In this document: positions 3,098 to 42,606 of the stretch, one piece after another
Layout: the number at the start of each line of letters is the position of its first letter
Position numbering within the stretch: position 1 is the stretch's first letter
Virus record (IMG/VR): IMGVR_UViG_3300015608_002795
Coordinates: 64,001 to 109,311 of that record
Strand: one strand, 5' to 3'
Origin: a virus
Lineage: Duplodnaviria > Heunggongvirae > Uroviricota > Caudoviricetes
DNA length: 45,311 nucleotides
The notes under the pieces: model-generated
What the model was told of the DNA's origin: nothing
Seen by the model: the letters and a program-made list of their open reading frames with translations, nothing else
Database searches by the model: none
Position numbers and translations under genes: made by a program

Positions 3098-3104
3098 ATA
3101 AAAA

Positions 3105-4007
3105 ATGAAAATTTACGATTGCTTTCAATTCTTCAACGAATTTGATGTATTGGATATAAGACTAAGTACACTATATGATCATGTGGACTACTTTGTAATA
3201 AGTGAAACAAATAAAACACACTCAAATATGGACAAACCATATTATTTTGATGAAAATAAACATTTATTTGAAAAGTATATGGATAAAATTATTCATATAA
3301 AAGAATGCTATCCAGATGATATACTAAAGTTTAAAAAGAAGGAAGAAAGTAACCCCTACAATGATATGTATAATATCATATCTGACATTTATGATAAAGA
3401 AGAACACGAAAACGAGTTAAAGAGGTGGCCTAATTTTTGTAGAGATTACTTACAAAGAGAGTATATAAAATTGGGTTTAATCAATTGTGAAGACGATGAT
3501 TTAATTATGGTATCTGATTTGGATGAAATTTCAAACCCTGATGTTATTGACCAAATAAGAGAAGGCAATATTGTTGATAAATGTCTAATGCAAAATTGTT
3601 ATTACTACTATGTAAATATGGTTGCTCATACTAATTGGTATGGTGCTTATGTGGTAAAATATTCAAAGACAAAGGATGTCTCATTAACACATCTTAGAAA
3701 TGAGAGCAAAAGTTATGAGAGAATAGATAATGCTGGGTGGCACTTTAGCTTTGTTGGTGGACCAGATAGAGTTAGAAATAAAATACAAAGTTATTCACAC
3801 CAAGAGTTTAACAATCCATACATTTTAAATGGAATTGAGCAAAGAATTAATAATAAACAAGATCCATTTGGAAGAGGAAATCACACTTATAATAATCCAA
3901 TACAAACATTTTATTATGAAAATATGTTAGTTACAGATATGAGTGAGTGCCCAGAAAAAATGGTTAATCTTATAAAAGAAAAATATAGTTATTTAATAAG
4001 AGAATAA
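3105..4007 (+). CDS. GT17-family (MGAT3-like beta-1,4-GlcNAc transferase) glycosyltransferase
   Basis: IYDCFQFFNEFDVLDIRL, VDYFVISE, QRE, MVSDLDEI, AGWHFSF, KIQSYSHQE. Confidence 0.85.
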   Translation: MKIYDCFQFFNEFDVLDIRLSTLYDHVDYFVISETNKTHSNMDKPYYFDENKHLFEKYMDKIIHIKECYPDDILKFKKKEESNPYNDMYNIISDIYDKEEHENELKRWPNFCRDYLQREYIKLGLINCEDDDLIMVSDLDEISNPDVIDQIREGNIVDKCLMQNCYYYYVNMVAHTNWYGAYVVKYSKTKDVSLTHLRNESKSYERIDNAGWHFSFVGGPDRVRNKIQSYSHQEFNNPYILNGIEQRINNKQDPFGRGNHTYNNPIQTFYYENMLVTDMSECPEKMVNLIKEKYSYLIRE

Positions 4008-16919: not shown

Positions 16920-17798
16920 ATGTCAATAAAAGTAGCCTTCGCAGATTTTTGGGGTGGGTTTAACTATAATCCAGATATAAATGTTAATAGTAAAGAGATG
17001 TATTATGGGGATAATACATTATATGACATTCTATCCGAAAGGTATGATATAGAAACTTCTACCAACCCAGATGTTTTAATCTACAGCGTTTTTGGAAATT
17101 CACATACACAATATAGTTGTAAAAAGGTATTTTATACTGGAGAAAATATGAGACCTAATTACAACCAATGTGATTACTCATTGACATTTGATTATCTAGA
17201 TGATGAAAGAAACTATAGATTCCCACTATCAGCAATTACCTTATATGAGTCTGGTATAAGAGATAAGTTTCCAAAAGAAATTGATTTTGATAAAATAAAA
17301 AAAGAAAAGACAAAGTTCTGCAATTTTGTATTTTCAAATCCAAATGCACAATTAAGAAATCAACTATTTTATGAATTATCAAAATATAAGCAAGTTGATT
17401 CTGGTGGACGAGCACTTAATAATATTGGGTATGCCGTTAGTGATAAATTAGAATTTATTAACAATTATAAATTTACCATTTGCTTTGAAAATAGTGAATA
17501 TCCAGGATATACAACTGAAAAATTAGTGCATCCTAAGTTAAAAAATAGTATTCCTATATATTGGGGAAATCCAAGAGTTGGTGAGGATTGGAATACAAAG
17601 TCATTTATCAATGCTTATGATTTTAAAGATATCAACTCTCTCATTGATTATATTAAAGAGGTAGATAATGATGATAATTTATATGAGAATATTTTAAAGG
17701 AAAGTCATTTTTTAGATGATAAATTACCACATGATTTAGATACTAATAATTTATTAGATTTTTTTGAAAAAATATTTAAAAATGAAAAAAAGCATTGA
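16920..17798 (+). CDS. GT10 alpha-1,3/4-fucosyltransferase-like
   Basis: FYTGEN, KFCNFVFSNP, VDSGG, YKFTICFENS..PGYTTEK, IPIYWG. Confidence 0.92.
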   Translation: MSIKVAFADFWGGFNYNPDINVNSKEMYYGDNTLYDILSERYDIETSTNPDVLIYSVFGNSHTQYSCKKVFYTGENMRPNYNQCDYSLTFDYLDDERNYRFPLSAITLYESGIRDKFPKEIDFDKIKKEKTKFCNFVFSNPNAQLRNQLFYELSKYKQVDSGGRALNNIGYAVSDKLEFINNYKFTICFENSEYPGYTTEKLVHPKLKNSIPIYWGNPRVGEDWNTKSFINAYDFKDINSLIDYIKEVDNDDNLYENILKESHFLDDKLPHDLDTNNLLDFFEKIFKNEKKH

Positions 17799-17910
17799 AG
17801 ATAAATTAATGGAGATTCTTTCTGAAGAACTATCAGCAAGCATTGATAGGGAAATAATGAAGGGGTTGATCCCTTCTATAAGAAAGGAAAAAATTAAAAA
17901 TGTAATTAAA
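17782..17910 (+). CDS. 42-aa micro-protein (not in ORF track) with a gp23 major-capsid-like helix and a C-terminal RKEKIKK tag
   Basis: Manual translation: MKKSIEDKLMEILSEELSASIDREIMKGLIPSIRKEKIKKCN*. The ATG overlaps the GT10 end, and the ORF fills the gap up to the convergent gene. Confidence 0.65.
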
Positions 17911-24447: not shown

Positions 24448-24738
24448 ATGATTAAAAAATGTAGATGTAAAAGCACAATGTCCGTATGTCAATCTATGTC
24501 AGATGGTGATTGGGAGGACGTTTTTGTTAAAGATAAATGGTATGATGTAAATCATGTTGAATGGTCTAATGATCCAGTACATGATTTAAAAATGCGCAAA
24601 ATAAATGGTGGGTGGAGAGACTACTTAGCTATGACAGAATTTGGAACGTGGAGACAACTGACTAGATCTGATTTTAATATTATATTTTATTCCGATGTGG
24701 AACTAAGAGAAGCTTTAATTAATGATATTCTCTTATAG
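24448..24738 (+). CDS. Hypothetical small protein with C-terminal tag LREALINDIL
   Basis: ORF track; tag shared with other small ORFs. Confidence 0.6.
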   Translation: MIKKCRCKSTMSVCQSMSDGDWEDVFVKDKWYDVNHVEWSNDPVHDLKMRKINGGWRDYLAMTEFGTWRQLTRSDFNIIFYSDVELREALINDILL

Positions 24739-31269: not shown

Positions 31270-31928
31270 ATAGTAGAGAATCAATAGAAGTTTTGGATAC
31301 AGTATCGGATATACTATTAGAATTAAATGATCAATTTGATATCGAGATAATGTTTGGATATGAAACTGTCCTAAATGTAGAGTCAAATTATAATAAAATT
31401 ATAAGTATTATCAGAGATTTTGAAAAGAATAAGAGAGAAATTCCAAAACTGGAATTTAGAATTATTACAAAAGATGGGATATCATTTAGTAATTTTAGTA
31501 ATGCCTATAATAATAAAGAAAGACCAGGTTATATAAGAAGAAAAAAAATGATAGCAGAGACAGCTTCAACGATTGTTAATAAACTCGATGCAATAAGTAA
31601 TAGAATGTCATCTATTTTAGATAAATATAAAATAAAAATAAATGATATAAAATATGATCAATATCCATTTCTATTAGTCGCCACTTCATTCGGACTTATT
31701 AAGGTGCCATTATTTGAAAAACATCAATTTGAAGAAGATGATATTACCAGGATGAGGAGAAATAACATCTCAATAAAATCATATGAAATAGATAAAGAAA
31801 AAATTGATAATCATAAAGATATACAATTGCTCTATGCTTATGTTCCTTTTGAAATATCAAAGGATAAACCTAAACCTACTAATAAGAAATTCAAGAATAA
31901 AATTAAAAAATTTATTGATTTCCTATGA
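31266..31928 (+). CDS. Hypothetical protein (VSDILLELND motif)
   Basis: ATGA overlap with the upstream gene. Confidence 0.6.
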   Translation: MNSRESIEVLDTVSDILLELNDQFDIEIMFGYETVLNVESNYNKIISIIRDFEKNKREIPKLEFRIITKDGISFSNFSNAYNNKERPGYIRRKKMIAETASTIVNKLDAISNRMSSILDKYKIKINDIKYDQYPFLLVATSFGLIKVPLFEKHQFEEDDITRMRRNNISIKSYEIDKEKIDNHKDIQLLYAYVPFEISKDKPKPTNKKFKNKIKKFIDFL

Positions 31929-32304
31929 TCTCATTTATTTTATTATCTCTCATCCTTTTGTGTGCTTCGCCGTCATATTTAATATAAGCTCCCCTCACAT
32001 ATTTAGTACCATTCATTTCTTGAAATCCATATAAAACATAACAATTAGGAAATGGATCAGATTTTATAGACTCTAAAGTGGATGTATTACATGATATTGA
32101 CCTTGAAAAAGCTTTATCATCTTCTATGTAGTATTGTATAAACGTTGGCTGGTTGGTAAAATACCTCAGTGATGGTAGTTCAGATAAATATTTTATATAC
32201 TTATCATCTTCTCCTATAAACCTTTGCTTTAATATATCATATTTTTCAATAGAGCTAATAGGTAGTTCAACTAAATGATTATTCATATTTATCTTATTTT
32301 GCAT
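31912..32304 (-). CDS. Hypothetical protein with C-terminal tag MRDNKINEII
   Basis: ORF track; last gene of the minus-strand run. Confidence 0.6.
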   Translation of the reverse strand: MQNKINMNNHLVELPISSIEKYDILKQRFIGEDDKYIKYLSELPSLRYFTNQPTFIQYYIEDDKAFSRSISCNTSTLESIKSDPFPNCYVLYGFQEMNGTKYVRGAYIKYDGEAHKRMRDNKINEIIGNQ

Positions 32305-38735: not shown

Positions 38736-39491
38736 ATGAAATACTTAATACAAGACAGCCTATACAAAGAATTTCATGAGGAAAGATTAATTCATACTTT
38801 GAACCGAATGGGTTTAGAATATGAAATGTTTAGCTTGCAATATTTTGTTGATGATATAGAAGTTAAAACAGATAGAACCGATGTAATGGTTTTTGGCGCA
38901 GTTAAGGCTGCCCATCTAGCAAAAAAGTATAAATGGAATCCAGGATCCTTCTATAATGAAAATCATGATTATATCGTTTATTCCAAATATTATAAGGAAA
39001 ATATGTTAAATTGGGATTCTAAGATTCAAAAGGCTTCAGATACAATAGATATAGATGGTCCGTTTTTTGCTCGACCAACTGGAGATACAAAATTATTTAA
39101 GGGTAAGGCATATGAAAATGTAGAAGAGTGGAATAATGACGCGTCTTATTTTTTAACTAATAACCCAAATTCTAAAGATGAATTGATTCAAGTGGATCCA
39201 TTGCAAAATATTTTACAGGAAATTAGATGCTTTATTGTAAAAGGTAAGGTAATTACTGCGTCAATGTATAAACTCGGTAACGTAGTTTTATATAAAGAGT
39301 GTATGGATGATGATATTATAGAATATGCCAATAATATGGCATCCATCTATCAACCAGCTGACGCATTTGTGATGGATATCTGTCGGACAGACAATGGGGT
39401 AAAGATAGTTGAATGTAATTGTATTAATTGTGCAGGATTTTATGACATTGATATGCAAAAATTAATTGTATCTTTAGAGGATAATTTTTAA
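38736..39491 (+). CDS. ATP-grasp protein (DUF4343/R2K-like)
   Basis: FARP....KLFKG, EIRCFIV.GKVITASMY, AFVMDI, KIVECNCINCAGFY. Confidence 0.82.
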   Translation: MKYLIQDSLYKEFHEERLIHTLNRMGLEYEMFSLQYFVDDIEVKTDRTDVMVFGAVKAAHLAKKYKWNPGSFYNENHDYIVYSKYYKENMLNWDSKIQKASDTIDIDGPFFARPTGDTKLFKGKAYENVEEWNNDASYFLTNNPNSKDELIQVDPLQNILQEIRCFIVKGKVITASMYKLGNVVLYKECMDDDIIEYANNMASIYQPADAFVMDICRTDNGVKIVECNCINCAGFYDIDMQKLIVSLEDNF

Positions 39492-39560
39492 CATGGAATT
39501 TTATTATAGAAATAAAAAACTAATAACACCATTTATTAGAGATAAAAAAATAGATATTAT

Positions 39561-40052
39561 ATGTTTATAATGGGCAAAGAGCGTGACTATATTGTTCACG
39601 ATGAAAATAATGTTAAGGGATTTTTTGGAGACTATAGGTTTCTATCAAATTTCCATATGGCACCTGTTTGGTATGAGGGTATATTGTACCCATCAACTGA
39701 ACATGCCTATCAAGCAGCAAAGACACTTGACGAAAGTGTAAGAATGGAATTCTTAGGATTAACTTGTGGTAAAGCTAAGAACAAAGGACAAGAAATTGGA
39801 CTTAGAGATAACTGGGACACCATTAAATATGATGTTATGTTCGCTGTTGTTTTTGATAAATTTTTTAGGCACCAAGATTTAAAAGAATTGCTTTTATCAA
39901 CTGGTGATAAATATTTAGAAGAAACAAATCACTGGGGTGATATTTTTTGGGGCAGATGTGATGATGTCGGGCAAAATAATCTCGGTAAATTATTAATGTG
40001 TGTTAGAAAAATAATTAAAGATAATCCCAATAGAAAAGGATTTATTATATAA
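39561..40052 (+). CDS. NADAR (YbiA-like) N-glycosidase
   Basis: FLSNF, YPSTEHAYQAAK, W..IK..VM.....DKF..H..L...LL.TG...L.E...W.D.FWG, GQNNLGKLLM.VR. Confidence 0.93.
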   Translation: MFIMGKERDYIVHDENNVKGFFGDYRFLSNFHMAPVWYEGILYPSTEHAYQAAKTLDESVRMEFLGLTCGKAKNKGQEIGLRDNWDTIKYDVMFAVVFDKFFRHQDLKELLLSTGDKYLEETNHWGDIFWGRCDDVGQNNLGKLLMCVRKIIKDNPNRKGFII

Positions 40053-40077
40053 CCAATCACTGGGAAGAAGTCTTATT

Positions 40078-40086
40078 TTATATATA
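40078..40086 (+). promoter_or_regulatory. Putative late promoter TTATATATA
   Basis: 4 nt upstream of the homing endonuclease ATG. Confidence 0.5.
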
Positions 40087-40090
40087 GTAT

Positions 40091-40834
40091 ATGATAATAT
40101 ACAAAATAACAAATATAATTAACAAAAAGATATATATTGGACAAACAATTAGAAGTATAGAAGAAAGGTGGAAAAAACATACATGGTTATCTACAAAGAA
40201 AAATAGTAAAATGGCGATAACTCTCGCTATAATAAAATATGGTGAAGAAAACTTTGTAATAGAAAAAATAGATGAGGCATATAATATAGACGAACTAAAT
40301 GAAAAAGAAATATTTTATATTAAAAAATATAAATCAAAATGTCCAAATGGATATAATATTGGAAATGGTGGATTAAATAGAAATCATTCAATTGAAACCA
40401 GGAGAAAAATAGGAGAATCTAATAAAGGAAAAGTTGGATATTATAAAGGACTTAAATTAAGTGACGAACATAGAAAAAATTTATCCATATCACACACCGG
40501 GCACAATATGAAAGAAGAAACAAAAATAAAATTATCAACTATAAATAAACTTAAGAAAATCGATCCTAAAGTTAGAGAGGCGGCGTCAATAAAAAATAGT
40601 AAGATATATCTTTTGGAGAAAGATAATAGTTTATATGTTATAACCAATATGAAGAAATTTGCAATGAGAAATGGACATGATAAATCCAATCTCTCTGAAT
40701 TGGCTAGTGGCAAAAAGGCAACATATAAAGGATTTAAGCTTGTTGAAAATATCGGACTTTTAAAACAGGTTGATAGTATAGAAGAAATTGTGAATAAGTA
40801 TACCACCATATATGAAAATATTATATACCAGTAA
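40091..40834 (+). mobile_element. Free-standing GIY-YIG (Seg-like) homing endonuclease with NUMOD3 repeats
   Basis: IIYKITN..N.KIYIGQT, AI.KYG.ENF, E..YI, GYNI..GG, HS.ETRRKIGESNKG, LSDEHRKNLS. Confidence 0.92.
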
Positions 40835-40847
40835 ATTTCTTTGACAA

Positions 40848-41033
40848 ATGAAAATTTCATCTAAAAAACCTACCGTAGAAGAAGTTTATAAAAAAATGAT
40901 TCTGAACTCTTGTTATGGAAGCACCGGAATCGAACCCATTATAAACTACAAAATACACTATAAAAGAATTATTAGTCCGGGTATAGTTCTTATTAGGAAA
41001 TTTAAAATTAAAAAAATCTTATCTAAGATATGA
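40848..41033 (+). CDS. 61-aa micro-protein carrying PolB motif B (KMILNSCYG) plus tag IRKFKIKKIL
   Basis: ORF track sequence; K-x3-NS-x-YG. Confidence 0.65.
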   Translation: MKISSKKPTVEEVYKKMILNSCYGSTGIEPIINYKIHYKRIISPGIVLIRKFKIKKILSKI

Positions 41034-41203
41034 GTAATAGTTTTTACAACCCAAAAGAAAGAGGTACGATAAAAATTTTACCAATGGATTTCGCTAGTTT
41101 ATATCCATCAAGTTTTAAAAAATATTTTTTTAATCATGTATTATTAAGAAAATCTAAAACTAAAAAGGTATTAAATAAAATATATGACACTGGAAGAAAT
41201 TAA
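41030..41203 (+). CDS. 57-aa micro-protein (not in ORF track) carrying PolB motif A (DFASLYPS) plus tag LRKSKTKKVL
   Basis: Manual translation: MSNSFYNPKERGTIKILPMDFASLYPSSFKKYFFNHVLLRKSKTKKVLNKIYDTGRN*; ATGA overlap with the previous ORF. Confidence 0.7.
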   Translation: MSNSFYNPKERGTIKILPMDFASLYPSSFKKYFFNHVLLRKSKTKKVLNKIYDTGRN

Positions 41204-41342
41204 AAATTTGAAAAAAATTCCGATTAAATTTGTTGATGATCTATATGATAAATTCAAGGTTGATTACTCGATATTGTTTTCAATTGTTACTGATGATATT
41301 TCAATATTGAGAGAACTATTAATAGATGAGATCGTAAATTAA
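41184..41342 (+). CDS. 52-aa micro-protein (not in ORF track) with tag LRELLIDEIV
   Basis: Manual translation: MTLEEIKNLKKIPIKFVDDLYDKFKVDYSILFSIVTDDISILRELLIDEIVN*. Confidence 0.6.
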   Translation: MTLEEIKNLKKIPIKFVDDLYDKFKVDYSILFSIVTDDISILRELLIDEIVN

Positions 41343-41347
41343 ACTTT
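41340..41347 (+). promoter_or_regulatory. Recurring motif TAAACTTT upstream of infC
   Basis: Three intergenic copies in the window. Confidence 0.3.
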
Positions 41348-41373
41348 ATAATAAAAATAAAATAAAATAATAG

Positions 41374-41904
41374 ATGAGTAAACGAATGTTTATCAAACAA
41401 AGAAAACACAAAATTAACAAAGAAATTTTCCCAGCTCCTAAAGTTAGAGTTGTTGGAGAAGGGGTCGAACCACAAATAATGGACACTAGAGATGCTATTG
41501 ATTTAGCATTTTCTATGGATAAAGACTTGATTTTAATAACTGAGAATGCAAATCCTCCCGTTGCTAGAGTTGAAGATTACAATAAGTTTTTATATCAACA
41601 AGAAAAGATGGAAAAAGAGAGGAAGAGAAATTCTGCTAAAATTGAAACTAGAGAAATTCAGTTGAGTGTTAGTATTGCGGATAATGATCTTAAAACAAAA
41701 TCCAAAAAGGCTAGAGAATTCTTAGAAGAAGATAATAAAGTCAAATGTGTTATTCAACTTAAAGGAAGACAAAAAGCTATGCCGGAACAAGGAGAATTAG
41801 TTATGTTGAAATTTGCTAGTTCGCTATCTGATATAGGAGCTCCTGAAACTCTACCTAAACTAGATGGTGGTAGATGGCTTATGATGTTAAAACCTAAGAA
41901 ATAA
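41374..41904 (+). CDS. infC: Translation initiation factor IF-3
   Basis: IN.EI..PKVRVVG, DLILI..NANPPVARV.DY.KFLY, EIQLS..IA.ND...K...A..FL....KVKC.I..KGRQ, P.LDG.R..M.L.P. Confidence 0.95.
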   Translation: MSKRMFIKQRKHKINKEIFPAPKVRVVGEGVEPQIMDTRDAIDLAFSMDKDLILITENANPPVARVEDYNKFLYQQEKMEKERKRNSAKIETREIQLSVSIADNDLKTKSKKAREFLEEDNKVKCVIQLKGRQKAMPEQGELVMLKFASSLSDIGAPETLPKLDGGRWLMMLKPKK

Positions 41905-41905
41905 A

Positions 41906-42301
41906 ATGAAGAAGATATTGAGTAAACTATTTTATCTAACTAATACCACATCAGAACATTTAGAGGCTAATGTTCCCTTAGGATCAAAAATATTAAATGT
42001 CAGTATTGACTATGGTGTTTTAAATGTACTAATTGAATCAAGTGATTCTAGCGACATGGATAAAATGAGTCTTCTTGTTTTTAAATTTGATAGTCGAGAT
42101 GCCCCCGAAATGAGTACACCGAAAGAATATATTTATGTTGGTACTTCATTTGATACCAACCCACAAGTACTCCCTAAAACTAATGGTAATCACTGTCAAT
42201 TCGATTTTTCACTCGGTAAAGTAAATTATCATATTTTTAGAAAAATAAGCTTACAAGAGAAAAGAGATAACCTAATAGAAAGTATTATTGATAAAAAATA
42301 A
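41906..42301 (+). CDS. Hypothetical phage protein with C-terminal tag KRDNLIESII
   Basis: P.G.KILNV and YIYVGT...YHIF resemble a common small phage beta-rich family; tag appended. Confidence 0.6.
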   Translation: MKKILSKLFYLTNTTSEHLEANVPLGSKILNVSIDYGVLNVLIESSDSSDMDKMSLLVFKFDSRDAPEMSTPKEYIYVGTSFDTNPQVLPKTNGNHCQFDFSLGKVNYHIFRKISLQEKRDNLIESIIDKK

Positions 42302-42309
42302 ATAATTAT

Positions 42310-42606
42310 ATGAACTTAAATGTACATCCTGTGAATTTTAGCCCTGATGATAAACTAATTTCTCTAATTGAGGAAAAAGTTAAAAAATTAAATATCTTCA
42401 ATGACACAATTACAAGTGTTGATGTTTATCTAAAGCTAGAGGGGTCGCACGCAGTTAGAGACAAAGTGGTAGAAATAAAAGTAAATGTGTTAAAGAATCA
42501 AATTTTCGTTAAAGAACAAACTAAGACATTTGAAGAGTCACTATCAATTGCTTTAGACTCAGCCATCAGCCAATTAAGAAAGAAAAAAGAAATTCTTAAA
42601 GGTTAA
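42310..42606 (+). CDS. hpf: Ribosome hibernation promoting factor / RaiA (short form)
   Basis: NF..D.KL...I.EKV.KL..F.D.I...DV.LK, K.VEIKV, FVKE..KTFEE....A.D....QL.K.K. Confidence 0.9.
   Translation: MNLNVHPVNFSPDDKLISLIEEKVKKLNIFNDTITSVDVYLKLEGSHAVRDKVVEIKVNVLKNQIFVKEQTKTFEESLSIALDSAISQLRKKKEILKG

Follow-up and report, generated by a model that had tools for sequence, protein, structure and literature searches.

The window analyzed here is a stretch of 45,311 nucleotides (nt), positions 64,001 to 109,311 of IMG/VR record IMGVR_UViG_3300015608_002795, and forms the 3' 45 kb of a 109 kb huge-phage fragment (GC 30%; CheckV completeness 39%). It contains two adjoining open reading frames (ORFs), ORF1 and ORF2, which encode micro-proteins of 61 and 57 amino acids (aa) with motifs resembling those of family-B DNA polymerase (PolB). 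A preliminary description of the locus had read KKMILNSCYGSTG, which sits in ORF1, as motif B of PolB and ILPMDFASLYPS, which sits in ORF2, as motif A. Both ORFs were re-read from the sequence, and the coordinates, the motifs, the ATGA by which the start of ORF2 overlaps ORF1, and the C-terminal tails agree with that description. On the sequence evidence, ORF1 and ORF2 are judged to be genuine, conserved protein-coding micro-genes, and NADAR, ORF1, ORF2 and ORF3 read as one translationally coupled operon. The features of the locus are as follows.

39561..40052, plus strand: NADAR gene, first gene of the operon (PF08719, E 2e-20), its last codons displaced by the endonuclease insertion
40028..40823, plus strand: inserted cassette with the GIY-YIG endonuclease gene, which relatives do not have (alignment to L048)
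40091..40834, plus strand: free-standing GIY-YIG + NUMOD3 homing endonuclease gene, 247 aa (PF01541 + PF07460)
40834..40851, plus strand: relic of the original NADAR 3' end, AAT TTC TTT GAC AAA TGA (NFFDK and stop), with the original ATGA overlap onto ORF1; matches the NADAR end of L048
40848..41033, plus strand: ORF1, 61-aa micro-protein with a motif-B-like core in a predicted helix and a basic tail (orthologues in L048, L049-51, L053 and L054)
40893..40919, plus strand: ORF1 core K-M-I-L-N-S-C-Y-G, pattern K-x3-N-S-x-Y-G, kept in 5/5 orthologues
40989..41030, plus strand: basic C-terminal tail of ORF1, LIRKFKIKKILSKI, the sole part that aligns to the ORF2 family
41030..41203, plus strand: ORF2, 57-aa member of a PolB-motif-A micro-protein family (profile search of 1.84 billion proteins)
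41084..41110, plus strand: ORF2 core M-D-F-A-S-L-Y-P-S, which is PolB motif A with the positions of the catalytic Asp and the steric-gate Tyr
41141..41182, plus strand: basic tail of ORF2, LLRKSKTKKVLNKI, inside a confidently predicted helix
41184..41342, plus strand: ORF3, 52-aa shortened member of a UVR-motif small-protein family, overlapping ORF2 by 20 nt
41374..41904, plus strand: IF3 gene (PF05198 + PF00707), a conserved downstream neighbor that marks the module end and is syntenic in all clade relatives

The motif A and motif B patterns occur once each in the six-frame translation of the whole 109 kb contig. In AT-rich huge-phage DNA translated in six frames (1.34 million residues), the pattern K...NS.YG was matched 20 times, by 16 ORF1 orthologues, 2 true PolBs and 2 of the 'mini-PolBs' described below, with no random match, and the background of D..SLYP was one spurious antisense frame, present in two loci. 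The motifs are therefore not due to chance. The spurious frame is a 61-aa match in G002 and G004 that runs antisense inside a 685-aa gene, and it was rejected as a candidate.

The ORF2 family was found through distant matches. When ORF1 and ORF2 were compared with GenBank phages by tblastn, only non-significant matches were returned, one of which (LR745206, E=2) gave a lead: in this 634 kb phage, a 79-aa ORF combines the MDFASLYPS core with a basic tail. When IMG/VR was scanned with a degenerate DNA pattern for MDFASLYP, 27 full-length PolBs and one further small ORF (L039) were detected, the latter homologous to the 79-aa ORF of LR745206 (E 4e-9). The search profile was made from ORF2 and the L039 ORF, leaving out the LR745206 micro-ORF. 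Searched against 1.84 billion representative proteins, it gave 50 matches at E<=1e-3, all of them 44-117 aa long and none a polymerase. Counted as clusters at 50% identity, the family thus has at least 50 members, all from metagenomic huge phages. Among 50,697 GenBank phage records, LR745206 alone has a family member, and neither Pfam nor PHROGs has a model for the family. Scans of IMG/VR for close relatives with ORF1, ORF2 and IF3 gave nothing, and the NADAR query gave two distant loci only. With ORF2 as query, a word-indexed search of proteins found no sequence but ORF2, the method being insensitive for such short proteins. The string DFASLYPS appeared in no paper in our literature search, which also gave no account of the family or of phage microProteins of polymerases, and the Aravind-lab surveys do not mention it. 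The ORF2 family has apparently been undescribed until now.

Members share a simple architecture (alignment A3). An optional acidic N-terminal helix (EE.YKKMLEEL) is followed by a Ser/Gly-rich stretch and then by the core N-[M/F]-D-F-A-S-L-Y-P-S-[T/S], whose D, L and Y are the same in all 50 sequences and whose F, S and P are nearly invariant. After 8-15 variable residues comes a basic amphipathic C-terminal helix, R-K-x-K-I-K-K-I-L. ORF2, row 1 of the alignment, has the length (44-117 aa), the core and the basic helix 8-15 residues further on that define the family, and it shares 30-75% identity with the other members. Four sequences (P0003, P0008, P0013 and P0032) are full-length relatives of ORF2 as far as its KIYDSGRN end. 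The AlphaFold2 model of ORF2 (predicted local distance difference test, pLDDT, 71.3) has a short hairpin, little order in the core and one long helix over residues 26-53, in which the tail block reaches pLDDT 93.

Several lines of evidence connect the ORF2 core with PolB. The family profile matched only family-B polymerases in the PDB (herpes simplex virus (HSV) UL30, Pol alpha, RB69 gp43 and archaeal PolBs; best E 0.002), and every match aligns on the motif-A strand P..G....V..DFASLYPS. Among the 50 members, 24 matched PF00136 and 9 matched PF03175, and no other Pfam family recurs. The core also aligns to the PolB N-halves of related huge phages with 21-23 bits over 22 residues, including the lineage-specific TTQRQFF after the motif. 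Single sequences lie below the curated Pfam cut-offs for PolB: ORF1 reaches 18.9 bits on PF03175 (cut-off 25.8), ORF2 has no PolB match at E<=1 although it contains motif A (D-x-x-S-L-Y-P-S), and the best PolB Pfam E among the other family members is 1e-4. From these alignments, we regard the invariant segment of the ORF2 family as homologous to the motif-A strand of T4-type family-B DNA polymerase. No PolB gene and no motif C (Y-x-D-T-D-S) were found on the 109 kb contig, and ORF1 and ORF2 (57-61 aa) have no exonuclease motifs or palm-fingers-thumb fold. The sequence VTDD in ORF3 was tried as a motif C and rejected, as it is unconserved in relatives.

The core residues are kept while their codons differ. 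Among relatives, Ser is encoded by AGT, AGC, TCT or TCA and Leu by TTA, CTA, TTG, CTC or CTT, and in LR745206 the micro-protein core and the motif A of the phage's own polB have unlike codons at 5/7 common residues. Since residues are kept while codons vary, selection on the core is judged to act at the protein level, which excludes both recent capture from polB and a decoy acting as DNA. Neither the near nucleotide identity nor the unconstrained decay expected of a polB pseudogene or fragment was seen, in a comparison made with the polB of LR745206 because that of the window phage is off the contig. The preliminary description held that the two genes are not a frameshifted polB pseudogene, and this is borne out by the 50 family clusters and by a conserved peptide whose codons differ among relatives. 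It had also proposed comparing the micro-genes with polB at nucleotide and protein level for conserved residues over varying synonymous sites, which is the pattern found here, with LR745206 supplying the comparison with a phage's own polB. Short ORFs joining a PolB motif to a tail, which it had looked for in related huge phages, do exist, as 50 clusters of the motif-A type and as syntenic orthologues of both ORFs. The locus occurs on at least 24 independent contigs, on which ORF2 is identical. The strain contigs (98.7-100% identical) have zero variable sites in the micro-ORFs and are therefore uninformative on selection.

ORF1 appears, from its distribution, to be a sibling limited to this narrow clade, as ORF1-type proteins form 3 clusters among 5.8 billion proteins. 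In orthologues from five relatives, K-[ML]-I-L-N-S-[CS]-Y-G and the tail are kept while the middle diverges, and synonymous codons of the core vary among them. Compared with L048, the ratio of non-synonymous to synonymous substitution rates (dN/dS) is 0.22 (7.5 synonymous and 7.5 non-synonymous changes). The window copy matches PF03175 with E 7.5e-4, below the curated cut-off, as do 2/5 orthologues, the closest two, which have YGSTG (E about 6e-4). ORF1 aligns to the ORF2 family over the 16-residue tail only (hhalign E 6.5e-6) and is not a member of the motif-A family, because the tail alone is in common. The term 'textbook' used for both PolB motifs in the preliminary description is thus apt for motif A of ORF2, where profile support is strong, and goes too far for motif B of ORF1, where it is weak. 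That motif B precedes motif A, the reverse of the order in PolB, is as first seen, and it carries little weight because ORF1 and ORF2 are separate genes whose cores are not detectably related. AlphaFold2 predicts three helices for ORF1 at low confidence (pLDDT 63.8).

Some ORF1 orthologues (L052 2197-2381, L053 206-400, L054 1916-2101) have no ATG start and were uncalled as genes; these probably start at GTG or TTG, and the L052 copy is frameshifted. A tRNA remnant in ORF1, suspected from GGAATCGAACC, was rejected, as ARAGORN and Rfam detected none there.

The tails of ORF1 and ORF2 are near-identical to each other inside each genome, as the preliminary description observed for this one, and they are not peculiar to the pair. 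They are a basic variant of a genome-wide tail, R-[D/E]-x-K-[I/L]-x-x-[I/V]-[I/L], with further examples at window 41906-42301, 31912-32304 (minus strand) and 24448-24738. The general pattern (R/K, polar, x, K/R, aliphatic, x, x, aliphatic, aliphatic) lies in the last 22 residues of 10/160 predicted genes of the contig. At internal positions it was found 5 times in 26,978, so that about 0.4 tail matches are expected by chance. Because tail codons and downstream context vary, the tail is a protein-level motif, which may act as a degron, as a signal for packaging or as a helix for docking. Many small proteins of LR745206 and L039 end in the same kind of tail. With -1 to -3 bits, its resemblance to the first helix of the PolB fingers falls short of significance. 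A 43-aa ORF at window 17782-17910, which ends in IRKEKIKNVIK, is another tail-bearing micro-protein.

Directly upstream of ORF1 lies the GIY-YIG gene, with domain scores of 36.8 bits for PF01541 (cut-off 22.6) and 32.6 bits for PF07460 (cut-off 20.4). It combines the catalytic domain, the NUMOD module and the presence/absence polymorphism of a GIY-YIG homing endonuclease, and the closest phage relatives of its product are annotated as homing endonucleases. The gene is present in all near-identical strain contigs and missing in L048-L054. In L048 (90% nucleotide identity) and in the more distant L049-L054, the gene order is NADAR, ORF1, ORF2, (ORF3), IF3, and the NADAR of relatives without the endonuclease gene runs to ...NFFDK and stop, overlapping the ORF1 start. 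The breakpoints are at window 40027/40028 and 40823/40824: positions 1-337 of L048 correspond to window 39691-40027 and positions 350-753 to window 40824-41227, i.e., about 796 nt of the window replace 12 nt of L048. NADAR identity to L048 is 98-100% to about 39915 and then 70-73% over about 110 nt before the insertion (39916-40064 region), a diverged flank that fits an endonuclease target or co-conversion tract in NADAR and not in the micro-ORFs. A 14-nt near-repeat, AAC[A/C]AATCACTGGG, occurs at 39923 and, inside the insert, at 40051; together with the diverged flank it may mark a tract of co-conversion or be left over from the donor locus. Rfam detected no intron-like RNA at window 39000-42500. 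The gene is best read from these alignments as a recent insertion into the NADAR 3' end and a passenger of the locus. The preliminary description had linked the micro-genes to it by position, which is correct as to adjacency; the gene is nevertheless secondary, and no endonuclease gene adjoins the micro-ORFs in L048-L054 or in any other family locus.

ORF3 and the upstream enzymes complete the module. The ORF3 orthologues of L048 and L054 (78-82 aa) match PF02151 with 23.0 and 23.9 bits (cut-off 21.5), and a 33-codon deletion has removed the motif from the window ORF3, both ends of which are conserved (dN/dS = 0.18). ORF3 homologues lie 3' of the micro-protein gene in L039, L055, L057 and L058, and a UVR-motif gene is found downstream of the micro-protein both in this clade and in the loci with PARG. 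The gene upstream of the micro-protein gene, often overlapping it, encodes an enzyme: NADAR in this clade, a microbial-type PARG in L039, L057 and, with one gene between, L058, and a Pol-beta-type nucleotidyltransferase (NTase) of about 210 aa in LR745206, L059 and L060. NAMPT is encoded convergently downstream in LR745206 and L059, in the latter together with NUDIX. Phage NADARs are reported to neutralize DNA ADP-ribosylation by DarT1 (bioRxiv 10.1101/2024.07.11.602962). Downstream of the micro-ORFs in the window, IF3 is followed by genes for a ribosome hibernation factor, GrpE and adenylosuccinate synthetase.

The NTase genes lie at L003 3115-3753, L059 4121-4765 and L060 4370-4999, and Pfam recognizes only generic NTase families in them. 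A split 'minimal DNA Pol III alpha' has been described in group 2.2 jumbo phages (Iyer et al., 2021), and the NTase of about 210 aa might be a piece of it.

Four wastewater metatranscriptome runs contain the locus, on contigs with flat cover over 15 kb and both strands, a pattern that DNA carry-over would also give and that does not show transcription. In 3/4 of these RNA-library runs, minor contigs (depth 3-8 vs 25-60) join 39866 to 41110 via 37 unrelated letters, which may represent a variant without the NADAR 3' part, the endonuclease gene, ORF1 and the ORF2 start, or an assembly chimera.

The polymerase from which the core derives is itself divided in related phages. T4-type PolB is encoded by two genes in LR745206 and in 46 IMG/VR loci (L061-L106), with the break between motif A and motif B. 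The N-half (about 512-531 aa) has the exonuclease and motif A, and the C-half (about 474-477 aa) has motifs B and C and the thumb. In LR745206 the two halves are encoded about 100 kb apart. Split PolB loci were recorded in LR745206 (L042, L043), G002-G006 (L107-L110) and L061-L106. The halves of split gp43 are reported, in a secondary account, to co-purify and reassemble into active enzyme (Petrov et al., 2010, cited in PMC2988022).

Two further observations concern PolB in this lineage. A 'mini-PolB' of 221-224 aa, unrecognized by Pfam, is encoded at L039 2840-3514 (minus strand), L057 2647-3312 (plus strand) and LR745206 597340-597888. It has a pre-A strand, a motif A with Ser or Thr in place of the catalytic Asp (SFSSLYPNII), motif B (KTYINSFYG), motif C (YIDTDT) and the common tail. 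In L039 and L057 the micro-protein gene follows 1-2 kb downstream of it. The second observation is a coding gap of 35-40 nt directly 5' of motif B in the PolB C-half gene of 11 distinct huge-phage loci, among them L061, L083, L085, L090, L091, L093, L095, L098, L099 and L104 (about 3100-3180 in most). Here ...ALQLAL (CTT, once CTG) is followed in most loci by a stop within two codons and then by a GC-rich hairpin of 10-12 bp whose arms co-vary. The reading frame resumes with CTA AAA... (LKLVLNGSYG), there is no in-frame start codon downstream, and uninterrupted relatives read straight through. The gap looks like a translational bypass of the T4 gene 60 type or a byp-like element.

Taken as a whole, the explanation we prefer is that these are conserved micro-genes, that the ORF2 core is derived from PolB, and that the peptide is presented to a partner of the polymerase element; we give this combination an even chance of being correct. 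The micro-proteins would act as peptides, with a helix as the handle on which an element of the polymerase active site is presented. Their partner would be the protein that normally pairs with that element, i.e., a PolB-type palm without a functional motif A of its own, and the effect would be that polymerase assembly is regulated or altered when a host defense ADP-ribosylates DNA. In function, the motif-A strand would be mimicked or donated at the protein level, as part of an ADP-ribosylation counter-defense module. A partner that forms or recognizes the real active site is favored over mere bait because the motif-A residues, including the catalytic Asp, are invariant, while the mini-PolB has lost the Asp. 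The free C-half of PolB is preferred as the partner because motif A and motif C are on different polypeptides in this lineage, and we propose tentatively, from sequence, that the micro-proteins may present the element to it. A more specific version, in which the motif-A micro-protein is a trans-acting donor of the active site and an alternative tiny subunit replacing the exonuclease-bearing N-half on the free C-half, is improbable. If it were true, it would give a proofreading-free polymerase coping with ADP-ribosylated template, beside an ADP-ribose hydrolase and a UVR-motif protein.

Several results weigh against the preferred explanation. The micro-protein was found in none of five split-PolB huge-phage contigs (33-98% complete, four of them at least 89%). 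As the halves carry their own motifs and these five contigs do without the micro-protein, it is not needed for split-PolB assembly. The PolB of the window phage is off the contig (39% complete), and its split state is extrapolated from other huge phages with the family. L055 has no recognizable ADP-ribose or NTase neighbor, and the three types of upstream enzyme amount to only three independent arrangements. The dN/dS of ORF2 compared with L048 is 0.88, with changes outside the core and tail and small counts. The ORF1 profile detected no PolB in the PDB, and the PolB ancestry of ORF1 is weakly supported, its motif-B identity resting on a regular expression and a weak Pfam match. Complex prediction of the PolB C-half (A5) with ORF2 (A3) gave a score of 0.00, which counts neither way; the pair comes from different phages.

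Other explanations accept the conservation and place the function elsewhere. The PolB ancestry could be historical only, the micro-proteins being small basic helical proteins that bind nucleic acid or are routed by the tail to degradation or packaging, with a core whose role is unrelated to polymerase. The tail does recur on many small proteins of the genome that are otherwise unrelated, and no other part is predicted with as much confidence; ORF1 and ORF2 have the tail alone in common, and the neighbors vary. However, it is the core and not the tail that is invariant over 50 diverged sequences, and it keeps exactly the residues that active polymerases keep, which makes this account possible and at the same time doubtful. 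Alternatively, the peptides could be host-directed decoys that mimic polymerase segments and soak up a host defense factor, either a sensor or a toxin that modifies or cleaves polymerase motifs, e.g., an ADP-ribosyltransferase whose modification the neighboring hydrolase would strip. This agrees with peptide-level selection over the exact polymerase motif, with the repeated coupling to ADP-ribose hydrolases (NADAR, PARG) with NAD+ salvage genes near, and with the patchy, accessory distribution usual for counter-defense genes. On the other hand, in folded PolBs motif A lies hidden inside the palm. A sensor that reads the native enzyme could not reach it and is an unlikely target, and a bait has no obvious need for every catalytic residue to be invariant. 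We know of no defense factor that targets these PolB motifs, and we consider a decoy of this kind unlikely.

We assign each of the remaining two explanations a very low probability. The micro-ORFs could be non-functional debris, i.e., polB fragments left by the mobility of a homing endonuclease, intron or intein, or by misassembly; the adjoining GIY-YIG gene would fit such an origin, as would the known insertion of inteins at motifs A and B of PolB. Yet the more distant relatives without the endonuclease gene keep both ORFs intact, and this, the 50 family clusters, the peptide kept with differing codons, and the occurrence of the locus on at least 24 independent contigs refute it. The preliminary description had also raised the idea that the micro-ORFs serve as DNA, as a decoy or landing site copying the polB sequence recognized by homing endonucleases or inteins. 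Only the position beside the endonuclease gene speaks for this. The core DNA varies at synonymous sites, the LR745206 core is unlike its own polB at the codons of 5/7 common residues, and both the insertion and the diverged flank are in NADAR rather than in the micro-ORFs, so this idea was abandoned.

T4-type PolB (gp43, PF00136) matches the ORF2 core and about 20 residues around it along the motif-A strand, including lineage-specific residues, and ORF1 matches the K-x3-N-S-x-Y-G pattern. In contrast to PolB, the micro-proteins are 57-61 aa long, lack the exonuclease domain, the fingers, the thumb and motif C, and are no polymerases on their own. A parallel is found in eukaryotic microProteins, small proteins that stem from a single interaction element of a larger protein and act by titrating the latter or its partners. 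Like these, the micro-proteins are small, consist of a single element and derive from a larger protein of the same genome lineage, the derivation of the ORF2 family being indicated by its PDB profile, Pfam and PolB N-half matches. Unlike these, the element kept is a catalytic motif and not a dimerization domain, and partner binding is putative here. To our knowledge, there is no example of a phage microProtein.

Among phage systems, the split gp43 (43A/43B) of Aeromonas phages 25 and 44RR resembles the related huge phages in having PolB in separately encoded pieces; the halves carry their own motifs and make a complete enzyme (PMC2988022), whereas the micro-proteins come in addition, are much smaller and are missing from many phages with a split PolB. 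The stand-alone NADAR of the operon is like the orphan NADAR counter-defense genes of T4-like phages directed against DarTG1, for which the preprint abstract describes no coupled micro-proteins (bioRxiv 10.1101/2024.07.11.602962), and NADAR would have such a role here. The endonuclease gene shares GIY-YIG + NUMOD3, presence/absence polymorphism, insertion at a gene end and one diverged flank with the free-standing GIY-YIG genes of T4-like phages (Seg/Mob type; PMC2988022), and differs in being a passenger outside the micro-protein module.

Catalytic motifs of polymerases are thought to be meaningful only inside the full fold. That a 9-residue motif stays near-invariant in proteins of 44-117 aa, in no fewer than 50 diverged clusters, implies that the element has, in isolation, a function on which selection can act. 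Should the polymerase be the target, no earlier microProtein-type regulator or sub-domain-sized subunit of a replicative DNA polymerase would be known, and split-polymerase biology in huge phages would gain a new layer. If a host factor is the target, it would point to a defense acting on segments of the polymerase active site. Collectively, the coupling to NADAR, PARG or NTase genes offers a testable entry into how huge phages handle ADP-ribosylation-based immunity.

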